A stretch of DNA of 9,356 nucleotides, taken from a virus. Its lineage: Duplodnaviria > Heunggongvirae > Uroviricota > Caudoviricetes. Numbering within the stretch: position 1 is the stretch's first letter; every line of letters begins with the position of its first letter. Both the position numbers and the translations under genes were made by a program. The notes under the pieces are model-generated. The model made no database searches. It worked only from the letters and a program-made list of their open reading frames with translations, and was not told the origin of the DNA. Positions 3,222 to 9,356 of the stretch are shown here, in pieces. The stretch is taken from IMG/VR virus record IMGVR_UViG_2744054627_000002; one strand, given 5' to 3'.

Positions 3222-3933
3222 CCGGGACTGCAGTGTTTCCCGGACATCATCCGGTAGATGGCTGTAGGGGTTGCCATCCACCTTATGGCTGCCGCTGTAA
3301 ATCAGCGTGATTTCCACGCCCTGTTTCTCCAGCGCAGCGCCGTAATTACTGTGAGCCATCATGACGCCGATGGAGCCTGTCCGGGCGGTCTGCGTGACCA
3401 GACGCCGGGAGGCGGCACTGGCAAGCAGCTGACCTGCACTGCAGTTCATGTCGTTGGCCAGCGCCCATACCGGTTTTATGTCACGCACACGGGCGATGAT
3501 GTCAGCGCAGTCAAATGCCCCGCCACCATTCCGCCTGGCGTGTCCATATCGAGCAGAATGCCGTCCACCATCGGGTCGCTGGCAGCCTGTTGCAGACGGG
3601 CGATAATGCCGTTGTAACCGGTCATCCCGAGTACGGCTGCAGCGCCCGCGTCCGGCTGACCAGCGTGCCGGACACCGGCAGCACGGCGATGCCGTTCATG
3701 ACCTGATAACTGCGGGCCTGTCGTGGTCCGTCATCATCACCGGATAATGCCAGCGTCGCGAGTGCCTCCTGGGCAGTCAGGCTGTCGCCGGACACCGCAT
3801 CCGTCAGGCGGCTGATCCCAAGCTGGCCTGCAAGCGCACAAAAGAAAACCCGCGCATAGGCGGGTTCAAGCATCAGCGGCTCATTAAAGGCCATGCTGGC
3901 AATATGCGGGAGATTACGCAGCTCTGCTGTCAC
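2616..3933 (-). pseudogene. C: Capsid assembly protease / minor capsid protein gpC; two frameshifts as assembled
   Basis: GTG start at 3931..3933 (complement), overlapping the end of B by 20 nt; translated VTAELRNLPHIASMAFNEPLMLEP...ALQPYSG, then ORF 2616..3488 gives (V)RDIKPVWALANDM...NDLLNTPV, both lambda gpC. Breaks at CCC 3626..3628 and CCCC 3518..3521. Span 1318 nt against 1320 expected. Confidence 0.85.
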
Positions 3934-5504
3934 TCTTCTCCTCCTCTGTTGATTGTCGCAGCCCGGATTCAAATGCCGCAGCCGCCCAGGCGGGTGGTTT
4001 AAGACCGGCTGCACGACGCTCCATCGTTTCACGGACCTGCTGGGCAAAATTTCCTGATAGTCGTCACCGCGTTTTGCGCACTCTTTCTCGTAGGTGCTCA
4101 GTCCGGCTTCTATCAGCATCACCGCTTCCTGAACTTCTTTCAGACCATCGATGGCCATACGACCGGAGCCTATCCAGTCGCAGTTCCCCCAGGCACTGCG
4201 GGCTTCCTGAAAGCTGAAGCGCGCTTTGAAGGTAACGTCACCACGCGGCGAACGATGGCCTCTTCCAGCCAGCACAGAAACATCTGGCTCGCCTGACGGG
4301 ATGCGACGAATTTCGCCGCCCATAAAGTGCGCCCACGACTCGTTCGCGCTGGCCCGTGCCGTGGAGTAGCTCATCTGGGCGTAATTCCGGGAAAGCTGCT
4401 CATACGAGACACCCAACCCGGCAGCGATATACCGCAACAGTGACTGCTCAAAACGGAGTAGCCGTTATCCGTGTCCTGAGCCGTCTGCAGGTTCAGTGAG
4501 TCACCCGGCATCAGGTGCGGCACTTTTGCGCCTCCCAGCCGGACCGGTGCTGCGGCGTAATACGCGGCAATTTCACCAATCCAGCCGGTCAGCTTGTCCC
4601 GCTGCTCCTGACTGTTCGCGCCCAGAATAAAATCCATCGCTGACTGCGTATCCAGCTCACTCTCAATGGTGGCGGCATACATCGCCTTCACAATGGCGCT
4701 CTGCAGCTGCGTGTTCTGCAGCGTGTCGAGCATCTTCATCTGCTCCATCACGCTGTAAAACACATTTGCACCGCGGGTCTGACCGTCCTCCACGGGTTCA
4801 AAAACGTGAATGAACGAGGCGCGCCCGCCGGGTAACTCACGGGGTATCCATGTCCATTTCTGCGGCACCCAGCCAGGATACCCGTCCTCGCTGACGTAAT
4901 ATCCCAGCGCCGCACCGCTGTCATTAATCTGCACACCGGCACGGCAGTTCCGGCTGTCTCCGGTATTGTTCGGGTTGCTGATGCGCTTCGGGCTGACCAT
5001 CCGGAACTGTGTCCGGAAAGCCGCGACGAACTGGTATCCCAGGTGGCCTGAACGAACAGCTCACCGTTAAAGGCGTGCATGGCCACACCTTCCCGAATCA
5101 TCATGGTAAACGTGCGTTTTCGCTCAACGTCAATGCAGCAGCAGTCATCCTCGGCAAACTCTTTCCATGCCGCTTCAACCTCGCGGGAAAAGGCACGGGC
5201 TTCTTCCTCCCCGATGCCCAGATAGCGCCAGCTTGGGCGATGGCTGAGCCGGAAAAAGACCCGACGATATGATCCTGATGCAGCTGGATGGCGTTGGCGG
5301 CATAGCCGTTATTGCGTACCAGATCGTCTGCGCGGGCATTGCCACGGGTAAAGTTGGGCAGCAGGGCTGCATCCACACTTTCACTCGGTGGGTTCCACGC
5401 CCGCAACTGCCCACCAAATCCGCTGCCACCGCCGTGATAACCGGCATATTCGCGCAGCGATGTCATGCCGTCCGGCCCCAGAAGGGTGGGAATGGTGGGC
5501 GTTT

Positions 5505-5508
<4 letters not shown>
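3914..5508 (-). pseudogene. B: Portal protein gpB; about seven one-base frameshifts as assembled
   Basis: Four ORF fragments tile lambda gpB in order: 5101..5508 (MKTPTIPTLLGPDGMTSLREYAGYHGGGSGFGG...HIVGSF), 4748..5104 (MMIREGVAMHAFNGELFVQATWDTSSSRL), 4371..5000 (MVSPKRISNPNNTGDSRNCRAG...DTDNGYSV), 3622..4437 (RYIAAGLGVSYEQL...KARFSFQEARSAWGNCDWIGSGRMAIDGLKEV...YQEI). Breaks are in runs at about 5254..5258, 5016..5018, 4447..4450, 4311..4320 (two), 4224 and 4046..4049. Span 1595 nt against 1602 expected. Confidence 0.85.
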
Positions 5509-7601
<2,093 letters not shown>

Positions 7602-7627
<26 letters not shown>

Positions 7628-8147
7628 TCAGCAACCCCGGTATCAGTTCATCCAGCGCGGCTGCTTTGTTCATGGCTTTGATGATATCCCGTTTCAGGAA
7701 ATCAACATGTCGGTTTTCCAGTTCCGGAAAACGCCGCTGCACCGACAGGGGGATCCCGTCGAGAATACTGGCAATTTCACCTGCGATCCGCGACAGCACG
7801 AAAGTACAGAATGCGGTTTCCACCACTTCAGCGGAGTCTCTGGCATTCTTCAGCTCCTGTGCGTCGGCCTGCGCACGCGTAAGTCGATGGCGTTCGTACT
7901 CAATAGTCCCTGGCTGGAGATCTGTCTCGCTGGCCTGCCGCAGTTCTTCAACCTCCCGGCGCAGCTTTTCGTTCTCAATTTCAGCATCCCTTTCGGCATA
8001 CCATTTTATAACGGCGGCAGAGTCATAAAGCACCTCATTACCCTTCCCACCGCCTCGCAGAACGGGCATTCCCTGCTCCTGCCAGTTCTGAATGGTACGG
8101 ATGCTCGCACCGAAAATGTCAGCCAGCTGCTTTTTGTTGACTTCCAT
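7602..8147 (-). CDS. nu1: Terminase small subunit gpNu1, 181 aa, intact
   Basis: ORF translates to MEVNKKQLADIFGASIRTIQNWQEQGMPVLRGGGKGNEVLYDSAAVIKWYAERD..., lambda Nu1 with its N-terminal helix-turn-helix; 546 nt; the 3' end overlaps the A start by 26 nt as in lambda. Confidence 0.92.
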
Positions 8148-8149
8148 TG

Positions 8150-8240
8150 TTCATTCCACGGACAAAACAGAGAAAGGAAACGACAGAGGCCAAAAACCCG
8201 TTTTCAGCACCTGTCGTTTCCTTTCTTTTCAGAGGGTGTT
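8150..8240 (-). promoter_or_regulatory. cosB: terminase (gpNu1) binding region with R-site inverted repeats
   Basis: Perfect 15-bp inverted repeats GAAAGGAAACGACAG (8162..8176) and CTGTCGTTTCCTTTC (8211..8225), the lambda R-site motif, immediately upstream of Nu1. The segment between them differs from the lambda sequence I recall. Confidence 0.7.
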
Positions 8241-8410: not shown

Positions 8411-8440
8411 AGATATAAAAAAGCCCCGCATCGCGGGGCT
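8411..8440 (-). terminator. Rho-independent terminator for minus-strand transcription
   Basis: 8-bp GC stem (8423..8429 pairing 8433..8439, 3-nt loop), followed on the minus-strand transcript by UUUUUU (plus-strand A run 8417..8422); sits 20 nt after the stop of the 71-aa gene. No U-tract in the other direction. Confidence 0.7.
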
Positions 8441-8461: not shown

Positions 8462-8677
8462 TTAGCTGACTTCAACAAATATAAAATCATCACTGCCTAA
8501 ACAATGAGAGCCATAACGAACTTCATACTCCCCATTCAATTCAGAGCATTTAGACTTCGCATCGCCTTCCGTTGCATAAACACCAACAAGATGCCATGGC
8601 TTGTAACGTACTACAGCCCAACCAAGAACCCATCCTTGATTATCAGGATCTGCCTTCAGGTTATTTTCCACAAACAT
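8462..8677 (-). CDS. Hypothetical small protein, 71 aa, no recognised family
   Basis: ATG at 8675..8677 (complement) preceded by AAGGAG at 7-nt spacing; bounded by an in-frame stop upstream; product MFVENNLKADPDNQGWVLGWAVVRYKPWHLVGVY...; AT-richer than the head genes. Confidence 0.6.
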   Translation of the reverse strand: MFVENNLKADPDNQGWVLGWAVVRYKPWHLVGVYATEGDAKSKCSELNGEYEVRYGSHCLGSDDFIFVEVS

Positions 8678-8716
8678 AGTATTCTCCTTTGGGTACCCGG
8701 AGATATTCTATGCCAT

Positions 8717-8941
8717 TCAATAAACAGGCAGCAATGTAGCTGATACAATCTCCGCCATATTTGAATTCAGATCACACTCCACGGAGATTTCTTCATCCAT
8801 GGCACTCACTTCATATGTTCGTGAATAACCTTCAGTGCATTTACCACTGAAGATATCCTTAACCAGAACACGTCCACGCTGTAAAACCCTGAATGGAATC
8901 GTTCCGTTAAAGGGCTTTACGGTTACCAGTAATCTCTTCAT
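8717..8941 (-). CDS. Hypothetical small protein, 74 aa (internal ATG of track ORF 8717..9043)
   Basis: ATG at 8939..8941 (complement) preceded by GGAGGGG at good spacing; product MKRLLVTVKPFNGTIPFRVLQRGRVLVKDIFSGKCTEGYSRTYEVSAMDEE...; the next gene starts 39 nt after its stop. Confidence 0.5.
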   Translation of the reverse strand: MKRLLVTVKPFNGTIPFRVLQRGRVLVKDIFSGKCTEGYSRTYEVSAMDEEISVECDLNSNMAEIVSATLLPVY

Positions 8942-9103
8942 ATCCCCTCCGGATAAAAATGCCCCTTGCCGACCGGGCAGTTGCTTGATTCGGCAAGATT
9001 TAGAATGAATAAGATAAAATTGACACACGCAGCAGAATTTCATGCTTTACGGACGCTGGCGACCCCTTCATTTTTCAGCAAAATATTCTGCCATTTCAGT
9101 CAT

Positions 9104-9286
9104 TCAGTTATGCATACACTGTCGGACACCATTGACAATTTCACAGACCTGAGAGGCAGCATCCAAAAGCTGACGCGCCCTATCCAGGCTGACGCATCCC
9201 GCCAATAAAAAAGGCACCAGTATCGCTACCAGTGCCCATTTCGCCGTCGTTCGCGGCATTCTGTGTGTCCAGTGTTTTCTGCTCAT
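9104..9286 (-). CDS. Putative small lipoprotein, 60 aa (signal peptide with lipobox LLAGC)
   Basis: MSRKHWTHRMPRTTAKWALVAILVPFLLAGCVSLDRARQLLDAASQVCEIVNGVRQCMHN: basic N-region, hydrophobic core, L-A-G-C lipobox, no Asp at +2; AGGTGG upstream of the ATG. The frame stays open to the window end, so a longer protein cannot be excluded. Confidence 0.4.
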   Translation of the reverse strand: MSRKHWTHRMPRTTAKWALVAILVPFLLAGCVSLDRARQLLDAASQVCEIVNGVRQCMHN

Positions 9287-9300
9287 AACCCACCTGATTA

Positions 9301-9356
9301 TCAGCGCTTCAACTGAAAGTGAGGTCCGTCTTTCAGCGTTTTCCAGTCCCCGCCCC
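9301..9356 (-). CDS. Possible 3' end of an upstream late-region gene (partial, continues beyond the window end)
   Basis: A minus-strand frame is open from the window edge (...GGDWKTLKDGPHFQLKR) and ends in tandem stops TGA-TAA at 9298..9303, 11 nt before the lipoprotein ATG. Only 18 codons are visible. Confidence 0.25.
   Translation of the reverse strand, partial: GGDWKTLKDGPHFQLKR

Follow-up and report, generated by a model that had tools for sequence, protein, structure and literature searches.

A predicted outer-membrane lipoprotein at the position of spanins in a phage lysis cassette

Introduction

How does a phage that carries no recognisable spanin complete the outer-membrane step of lysis? 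To our knowledge, disruptin is the only alternative to spanins worked out so far. About 15% of the phages of Gram-negative hosts are without a recognisable spanin (bioRxiv 10.1101/515445), and 91 of 677 genomes fall in this group in Kongari 2018 (PMC6139136). The question is raised by a 9,356-nucleotide stretch of tailed-phage DNA (Caudoviricetes; IMG/VR record IMGVR_UViG_2744054627_000002), referred to in its full length as the window, near one end of which an open reading frame (ORF) of 60 codons encodes a small predicted lipoprotein. A first reading of the letters alone, the original prediction, saw in it either the outer-membrane member (o-spanin) of a separated spanin pair or a moron lipoprotein of the Bor or Cor type. 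We find a conserved gene that stands, in gene order, where other phages have an inner-membrane spanin (i-spanin) and an o-spanin, and whose intact copies have no spanin beside them. The best label for its product is an orphan o-spanin-like, release-protein-like lipoprotein in the spanin slot.

Results

A 60-residue lipoprotein under purifying selection

The coordinates of the original prediction are right; the gene lies on the minus strand, which had been left unstated (Table 1). The product, MSRKHWTHRMPRTTAKWALVAILVPFLLAGCVSLDRARQLLDAASQVCEIVNGVRQCMHN, has the signal of a bacterial lipoprotein, namely the basic n-region MSRKHWTHRMPRTTAK with five Arg/Lys (K/R present among the first seven residues), the h-region WALVAILVPFLL with a hydrophobic core of 12 residues, and the lipobox L28-A29-G30-Cys31 (criterion [LVI][ASTVI][GAS]C, Cys within residues 15-35), in which Cys31 (codon 9196..9194) is the predicted acylation site. 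Position +2 after the lipid-bearing cysteine is Val in the window and V, A, T, S or G among relatives, never Asp, in agreement with sorting to the outer membrane. The mature part has 30 residues, 29 of them beyond the anchor, and three cysteines including the predicted lipidated one (the others being Cys48, codon 9145..9143, and Cys57, codon 9118..9116). The features described in the original prediction are all present, as is the start 11 nucleotides behind an upstream frame that enters from beyond the window end and closes with TGA TAA in tandem (9303..9298).

A lipobox motif by itself proves nothing, because the PROSITE PS51257-style rule is satisfied three times among the stop-to-stop frames of the window (twice antisense to known genes), and shuffled windows yield 0.8 +/- 0.9 such frames. 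That the gene is real follows from other evidence. Internal stops occur in none of 54 distinct nucleotide alleles (89 loci), whose variable sites are distributed 24/19/40 over the three codon positions, and the ratio of nonsynonymous to synonymous substitution (dN/dS) is 0.20 in the lipoprotein frame versus 0.98 and 2.1 in the other two; by region it is 0.15 in the mature part and 0.185 in codons 1-13 of the n-region. The protein matches phrog_7528, a family of unknown function, from end to end (E 7.6e-35), and the lipobox Cys, both cysteines of the mature part and Met1 are kept even in relatives at 40-50% identity. The substitution pattern thus shows the 60-amino-acid ORF to be a protein-coding gene under purifying selection, and the suspected outer-membrane-type lipoprotein gene is genuine. 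Its distribution is narrow. A collection of 5.8 billion proteins holds 107 homologous clusters, whose named sources are almost all E. coli, plus one Salmonella and one Citrobacter, and of 1.84 billion representatives searched with a profile only 25 matched, all of the same narrow family or spurious. The gene is carried by 352 of 5,426 complete E. coli genomes (~6%), with 541 of 544 places chromosomal, and the Stx2e phage phiP27 carries an orthologue.

Which start codon is used? The lipoprotein frame is open to the end of the window, and in the identical DNA of E. coli PEC41 an alternative start 24 codons upstream, the one that many gene callers pick, would give a product of 84 amino acids. We reject this form since the extension is the out-of-frame 3' end of an M15 endolysin gene and is present only in that context; the contexts with other genes upstream have only the 60-amino-acid ORF in common. 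The concern that the ORF might be the C-terminal part of a longer non-lipoprotein, raised by the original prediction itself, is thereby answered. A 51-amino-acid form starting at Met10, used in an earlier catalogue, is likewise rejected because Met10 is unconserved, being Q, T, V or I in many members. We take the 60-amino-acid form as the product because Met1 is conserved family-wide, codons 1-13 are themselves under constraint and a GGTG-type Shine-Dalgarno sequence stands ahead of Met1 in all three common, unrelated upstream contexts. Annotation of the gene is poor. It was missed by PGAP in PEC41 (L003 6505..6687) and in many of the 352 carrier genomes. In the GenBank record of phiP27 (AJ298298, 20136..20861) the coding sequence L32 is the wrong frame over the lipoprotein gene, the off-frames having dN/dS of ~1-2, and the coding sequence L31, an out-of-frame end of the endolysin gene, is rejected as a real gene.

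AlphaFold2, given the family alignment, predicts one continuous helix over residues 12-59 at a predicted local distance difference test score (pLDDT) of ~72, with 70-75 for the mature segment. The mature peptide lacks Pro and is close to neutral (net charge -2 to +3 over the family). An amphipathic stretch is conserved over mature residues 7-24 (hydrophobic moment muH ~0.5-0.6; ~0.55 for the mature peptide of the window), with Cys48 on its hydrophobic face. The lipobox L[VAS]GC is invariant across the family and the h-region and lipobox together are nearly so, which is unusual conservation for a signal peptide and may be due in part to RNA structure.

This RNA structure is a terminator-like hairpin followed by a U-run, inside the ORF (Table 1). 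Its pairing is preserved in 54 of 54 alleles, through pair-preserving changes only; synonymous third positions of the stem are invariant, and synonymous divergence (pS) is 0.10 in the stem versus 0.20-0.24 elsewhere. Only 1.45% of random synonymous recodings fold as well as the native hairpin, the fold has z = -3.96 against shuffles, and the hairpin is also found in distant homologues. It may serve as a terminator for polymerases not modified by Q, as a 3' stabiliser of the lysis mRNA or as a dose limiter. Could the conservation reflect this RNA element behind the endolysin gene, with no functional protein made at all? The frozen synonymous sites of the hairpin and U-run, kept even in dead copies of the gene (89-92% identity, against ~80% overall), speak for such a view. 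We regard it as scarcely credible, given that the hairpin covers only 36 of 183 nucleotides, that the mature codons outside it show the low dN/dS given above together with third-position variation, and that all 54 alleles are open and the cysteines are invariant in relatives of 40-50% identity.

Linkage to the lysis module

What precedes the gene? Positions 8600..9356 of the window are 100% identical to E. coli PEC41, whose flank supplies the full upstream gene (locus L003). As the original prediction had proposed, we extended the sequence upstream, and the preceding gene, of 127 amino acids, is an endolysin (Peptidase_M15_4, E 3e-12; phrog_465 endolysin, E 1e-75), hence a lysis region, and not an Rz-like i-spanin. 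On the coding strand the order in the window and the PEC41 flank is Phage_holin_8 (130 amino acids), Phage_holin_3_7 (91 amino acids), Peptidase_M15_4 endolysin, lipoprotein. Judged by this order, the lipoprotein gene closes a phage lysis cassette, behind two holins and an endolysin.

The comparison covered three loci from reference genomes (Salmonella, Citrobacter, Lelliottia), 80 from IMG/VR, and annotated E. coli and phage records. The IMG/VR sets are the best 80 of 269 and the best 80 of 207 relatives in two scans, and the comparison takes in ~150 partly overlapping loci. The gene lies downstream of, and co-directional with, the holin or holins and the endolysin in 81 of 81 loci with sufficient upstream DNA, the endolysin being M15 in 51 and GH108 in 30, and the 17-nucleotide endolysin-lipoprotein junction of the window is the commonest form (39 loci). 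In the second, partly overlapping set the gene follows the endolysin in all 65 loci with enough upstream DNA, and the Phage_holin_3_1 and CHAP-like cassettes that this set adds have junctions of 3-6 nucleotides; the commonest forms overall have 3-17. Distant homologues stand in cassettes with Phage_holin_3_1 and M15 (3-nucleotide junction), with Phage_holin_3_1 and a third type of endolysin of 175 amino acids, CHAP-like by sequence reading (3-nucleotide junction), and with diverged holins and GH108. Thus the lipoprotein is kept with endolysins of three types, with three different holin set-ups and with at least six packaging modules, in structural-gene backgrounds of the myovirus type (phiP27) and the lambda type. 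Its first large downstream neighbour varies, with at least six unrelated clusters represented, which places the gene in the lysis module and not in the head or tail module. A consensus scan, which is weak evidence, found no sigma-70-like promoter site upstream of the gene inside the cassette. From this arrangement, the gene is a fixed member of the lysis module and presumably transcribed late with it.

The tight linkage to three endolysin types and the presumed late co-transcription would also be compatible with a lysis-related but non-disruptive role, such as lysis timing or modulation of the endolysin from the periplasmic side, and damage to the outer membrane is itself only inferred. We consider such a role improbable. 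A 30-mer anchored in the outer membrane is badly placed to act on inner-membrane holins, its retention beside chemically unrelated endolysins (peptidase, GH108 muramidase, CHAP-like) argues against enzyme-specific regulation, and its loss where spanins are present, described below, is not predicted.

The spanin slot and decayed copies

Where would a spanin be expected in such a cassette? The Klebsiella phage Kpn_R1 has homologues of Phage_holin_8 (47% identity) and Phage_holin_3_7, then an endolysin, and then an overlapped pair of i-spanin (93 amino acids) and o-spanin (77 amino acids, LIGSC) exactly in the slot of the lipoprotein. Comparison of the two cassettes shows that the gene sits in the slot filled by an i-/o-spanin pair in a homologous cassette. 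Conversely, two kinds of locus with canonical spanins retain the lipoprotein gene in decayed form. In GER2 and E. coli O104:H4 Shiga toxin (Stx) phages, which have S, R and Rz/Rz1, the copy carries three in-frame stops and indels; in E. coli EC12, which has a lambda-type holin, a GH24 lysozyme and an i-/o-spanin pair, the copy lacks its 3' half and both cysteines are gone. By these lesions the gene is dead in two independent lineages having canonical spanins. Decay where spanins exist is the pattern expected if lipoprotein and spanins are functionally redundant, a pattern that rests on two events only, from a survey of part of the 544 E. coli copies.

The search for a spanin partner

Is there an inner-membrane partner for the lipoprotein? 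We screened +/-6-10 kb of the loci for ORFs with one N-terminal transmembrane domain (TMD) and a polar tail, and for any further lipobox ORF; the screen recovers the spanins of Kpn_R1 and GER2, used as positive controls. No i-spanin candidate was found in the window or within this distance of intact copies in the ~150 related loci, nor did the surroundings of any intact copy show another credible lipobox ORF. The N-terminal-TMD ORFs of phiP27, screened over its complete genome, are all short (60-87 amino acids) and none is Rz-like. Likewise, tblastn with lambda Rz/Rz1, GER2 Rz and the Kpn_R1 spanins gave no match near intact copies or in phiP27. Among the loci examined, no intact copy is accompanied by a spanin. 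The connection with lysis is supported, and the separated spanin pair of the original prediction, with an upstream gene that is not Rz-like and no i-spanin in the window, in the ~150 loci or in phiP27, is not.

The phiP27 orthologue has nevertheless been catalogued as half of such a pair. Kongari 2018 (PMC6139136) lists phiP27 as having a separated two-component spanin with the i-spanin at 20348..20542 and the o-spanin at 20706..20861, the latter of 51 amino acids with a mature part of 30, of which 25 are predicted helical; with 62 periplasmic residues combined, it is described there as the shortest two-component spanin. This o-spanin is the orthologue of the window lipoprotein read from Met10. 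The proposed i-spanin (L090 20348..20542) is a 64-amino-acid ORF with a TTG start and a marginal hydrophobic stretch (Kyte-Doolittle mean 1.63), located in a ~480-bp insert unique to phiP27. It has no PHROG match and is absent from the window and every other locus, and it lies antisense to a 90-amino-acid ORF that matches phrog_36812 over its full length (E 5e-20) and has a 46%-identical relative in locus L078, where the 64-amino-acid frame is broken. Read in this way, the proposed phiP27 i-spanin does not hold up, and the tables and text of the catalogue notwithstanding, we find it hardly tenable that the lipoprotein is the o-spanin of a canonical separated pair. Our literature search found no paper linking the lipoprotein, phiP27 lysis or release proteins with spanins; the sole catalogue entry for the lipoprotein is in a supplementary table and pairs it with the i-spanin dismissed above. 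Independently, Pinto 2021 (PMC8136144) finds the Rz family in 277 of 279 Stx phages and a metallopeptidase endolysin family in two, of cluster C.

Other neighbours are no better as partners. In about one third of the loci, endolysin and lipoprotein have between them small ORFs whose N-terminal part is basic and whose transmembrane segment is C-terminal (phrog_4493/1115, 57-67 amino acids, and phrog_4906, 44 amino acids; e.g. L006 4016..4171, L062, L084, L012), and one such ORF also lies just upstream of Rz in the Stx phage GER2 (L092 2630..2782). They could be unrecognised membrane proteins of the lysis cassette. As i-spanins they are rejected, since they are missing from the window and from the commonest arrangement, occur upstream of the GER2 Rz as well, and have their TMD at the extreme C-terminus behind a basic N-terminal part, so that almost nothing is periplasmic. 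Holins are rejected because three holin set-ups keep the lipoprotein and Kpn_R1 has homologous holins plus ordinary spanins. Two soluble proteins encoded downstream, of 74 and 71 amino acids, are rejected because they have no hydrophobic segment and are present in only about ten of ~90 loci.

Could the lipoprotein be a true o-spanin whose partner has gone unrecognised, be it an odd phage protein or a recruited host envelope-spanning protein, so that the two membranes are bridged and fused after all? It occupies the spanin slot, it has the lipobox, sorting signal and periplasmic cysteines of o-spanins, its phiP27 orthologue was filed as a separated o-spanin by Kongari 2018, and small membrane ORFs lie just upstream in about one third of the loci. 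Yet no periplasmic protein with an N-terminal TMD is found near intact copies and none in the whole of phiP27 is Rz-like, the small upstream ORFs are absent from the window and expose almost nothing to the periplasm, and the holins are ruled out by the three set-ups and by Kpn_R1. Since the 29 residues beyond the anchor cannot cross the periplasm, a membrane-bridging mechanism is excluded unless such a partner adds the reach. We therefore hold this possibility to be rather doubtful.

Comparison with known systems

Homology searches place the protein in no described family of lysis proteins. At E <= 1 no Pfam family matches apart from sub-threshold DUF6338; NCBIfam, PADLOC and PDB gave no meaningful match, and Rfam gave nothing in the region. 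The mature part alone matches only phrog_7528 and no spanin PHROG. The 'Rz-like spanin' family phrog_6073 scores only E 0.014, through the signal peptide, and in hhalign only the signal peptide aligns with lambda Rz1 or the Kpn_R1 o-spanin. The likeness to o-spanins (lambda Rz1, T4 PseT.2, phiP27 SOS) is one of architecture: a lipoprotein of small size that bears a signal for outer-membrane sorting, a gene placed downstream of the endolysin, and a short mature part that contains periplasmic cysteines, here the invariant Cys48 and Cys57. The lipoprotein differs from them in having no i-spanin gene nearby and in belonging to no described o-spanin family; lambda Rz1 has 10 Pro in 40 residues, whereas the mature part here is helical and Pro-free; and in contrast to two-component spanins, a periplasmic reach of only 30 residues is too short to join inner and outer membranes.

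With the unimolecular spanin (T1 gp11) the lipoprotein shares the position as a single gene in the spanin slot and the N-terminal lipoprotein signal. T1 gp11 has in addition a C-terminal TMD and an envelope-spanning periplasmic domain, whereas the sole hydrophobic segment of the lipoprotein is its signal peptide (residues 15-39 window). We know of no lipid anchor in disruptin. Disruptin (phiKT gp28, bioRxiv 10.1101/515445) is a non-spanin outer-membrane disruptor of a spanin-less phage, and small and helical or amphipathic as is the lipoprotein; it is cationic and antimicrobial-peptide-like, whereas the lipoprotein has a net charge of about zero and is predicted to be lipid-anchored.

The closest architectural match, by analogy, is a type that the original prediction had not considered, the colicin lysis or bacteriocin release proteins (PF02402, e.g. 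ColE7 Cel). Precursors have 45-52 amino acids there and 60 here, and outer-membrane lipopeptides ~28-33 residues there and a predicted 30 here; in both, the gene closes an operon that comes on as the producer cell nears its end. Colicin lysis proteins act without a protein partner from their own operon, a feature to which we liken the lone lipoprotein. In one release protein, a prolipoprotein of 47 amino acids yields an outer-membrane lipopeptide of 28 residues that activates outer-membrane phospholipase A and makes the envelope permeable (PMC2896534). The differences are that the mature peptide there is of the CQANYIRDVQGG type, Gly/Ser/Thr-rich (QANYIRDVQGG), and here helical and cysteine-containing, and that the operon there is SOS-driven and on a Col plasmid, here a prophage late operon on the chromosome.

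A further group for comparison is formed by the moron lipoproteins lambda Bor, phi80 Cor and T5 Llp, small phage-encoded outer-membrane lipoproteins of which Bor lies in the same genome region. T5 Llp is a small outer-membrane lipoprotein that depends on a disulfide. Cor and Llp, linked to genes for tails or receptor binding, are made early or in lysogens, whereas the gene of the window lipoprotein is tied to that of the endolysin, and we found no promoter-like site for it alone. Is it then a moron-type accessory lipoprotein unrelated to lysis, acting in exclusion or receptor masking (T5 Llp, phi80 Cor) or in host fitness (lambda Bor)? Morons are known to settle between endolysin and cos; relatives of the locus carry there bor, LT-IIa toxin genes, a lipopolysaccharide (LPS) phosphatase, KilA-N and IS66, the product is a small disulfide-capable outer-membrane lipoprotein as is Llp, and the terminator-like hairpin with variable downstream genes gives a mosaic look. 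Against this, the gene is joined to the endolysin at 3-17 nucleotides in the commonest forms, and its linkage to the endolysin persists over at least six packaging modules, whereas a receptor-specific exclusion factor should track tail genes. It shows no match to Bor, to another Pfam family or to PADLOC, with the limit that the presence of Cor and Llp models in Pfam was left unchecked; Bor itself is a separate, adjacent gene; and the decay has occurred exactly where canonical spanins are present. The moron alternative of the original prediction thus stays in consideration and fits the data worse; we judge it unlikely.

Neighbouring genes and features of the locus

Beyond the lipoprotein gene lie genes for the two small soluble proteins of 74 and 71 amino acids, found downstream in about ten of ~90 loci, then a strong terminator, a gene for a Nu1-like small terminase subunit and lambda-type head genes (Table 1). 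Elsewhere in the window, at 3517..8192, comparison with the near-identical PEC41 reveals 17 single-base deletions, all in homopolymer runs, which split the genes for the large terminase, the portal and an S49 protease into several ORFs each; errors of sequencing or assembly look a likelier source than decay of the genes.

Among the relatives, the endolysin-lipoprotein junction is a hot spot for insertions (L002, L004, L005, L007, L034, L091). The inserts include an LPS core heptose(II)-phosphate phosphatase, KilA-N proteins, IS66 and a 163-amino-acid ORF that is HNH/AP2-like by eye; in Rac-SA53, LT-IIa toxin genes occupy the junction and the lipoprotein is lost. In eight loci (L055 and seven others) bor, encoding a 97-amino-acid lipoprotein on the opposite strand, lies ~170 nucleotides downstream of the lipoprotein gene and convergent with it. 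In lambda, bor likewise follows Rz/Rz1, a further sign that the gene occupies the spanin slot. In locus L010 (8458..9100) a truncated Phage_holin_8 gene is found fused with a SAR-type lysozyme gene and a 20-residue Rz remnant. The fusion lies directly ahead of the set of holin 3_7, M15 endolysin and lipoprotein, and appears to be a recombination joint between two different lysis cassettes.

Table 1. Features of the lipoprotein locus and its surroundings (positions in the window)
Feature	Position	Strand	Basis or remark
Lipoprotein coding sequence, 60-amino-acid prolipoprotein	9104..9286	minus	ATG at 9286; stop 9106..9104 included
Signal peptide, residues 1-30 (predicted)	9197..9286	minus	sequence reading; PS51257-style rule passed
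Mature lipopeptide, residues 31-60 (predicted), CVSLDRARQLLDAASQVCEIVNGVRQCMHN	9107..9196	minus	invariant Cys, AlphaFold2 helix, dN/dS 0.15
Shine-Dalgarno-like AGGTGG, 3 nucleotides ahead of ATG	9290..9295	minus	sequence reading
Terminator-like RNA hairpin and U-run, codons 17-29	9202..9237	minus	11-bp stem, GCGA loop, 9237..9212; U-run 9211..9202
M15 (L-alanyl-D-glutamate peptidase type) endolysin, 3' end, ...GGDWKTLKDGPHFQLKR	9298..9356	minus	runs off window; tandem stops 9303..9298
71-amino-acid soluble protein, phrog_4280	8462..8677	minus	conserved
74-amino-acid soluble protein, phrog_2571	8717..8941	minus	conserved
Strong GC-rich terminator	8422..8440		just before Nu1-like terminase gene, where cos is expected

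Discussion

The reading that we favour, tentatively, is that the lipoprotein, acting only from its place in the outer membrane, brings about the outer-membrane step of lysis and needs no inner-membrane partner. In this it would be built like a colicin lysis protein while not being homologous to one. During the late phase a lipid-anchored amphipathic helix of 30 residues, probably oligomerised or stapled through Cys48 and Cys57, would accumulate harmlessly as long as the cell wall is intact; after the endolysin has removed the wall, the lipopeptide would weaken or permeabilise the outer membrane and so finish lysis. Signal peptides are reported to contribute to the action of some release proteins, and the unusually conserved one here might do the same.

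A question remains, how far does the evidence carry this reading? Several points weigh against it. Its support, drawn from comparative data, is guilt by association plus two decay events, and the decayed copies could be hitch-hiking debris of recombination in place of evidence for redundancy. The junction between endolysin and lipoprotein is also a moron insertion hot spot, and the conserved terminator-like hairpin within the ORF might limit expression. The mature peptide is neutral and not cationic as disruptin is. Neither the window protein nor two distant relatives match PF02402 (Lysis_col) at E <= 1, a family that the ColE7 lysis protein matches at 4.1e-20 as a control, and hhalign against a colicin lysis protein aligns five residues, in the lipobox only; given this lack of sequence similarity, the mechanism of colicin lysis proteins serves as an analogy only. 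Furthermore, we know of no o-spanin that disrupts the outer membrane on its own. Phages can do without spanins in shaken laboratory cultures as long as no divalent cations are added, and a phage could thus lack an outer-membrane step altogether.

Taken one step further, and more tentatively still, phrog_7528 may stand next to spanins and disruptin as a third class of phage factor for outer-membrane lysis, a partner-less, release-protein-like replacement of the spanins. Such a factor would, for example, trigger phospholipase A or disorder the inner leaflet once the wall is gone.

If the lipoprotein acts alone, a short lipopeptide would suffice in place of a membrane-fusion machine, and phage lysis and colicin release would be linked mechanistically, by convergence; endolysin-based antibacterials and protein-release strains would also gain from it a minimal module for making the outer membrane permeable. 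If it does not act alone, its partner would be a non-canonical i-spanin. Either way, the published entry of phiP27 as the shortest two-component spanin needs correction. The candidate is compact, a single gene of 183 nucleotides that is often unannotated or annotated in the wrong frame, and it is present also in toxin-converting phages, where lysis controls the release of the toxin.

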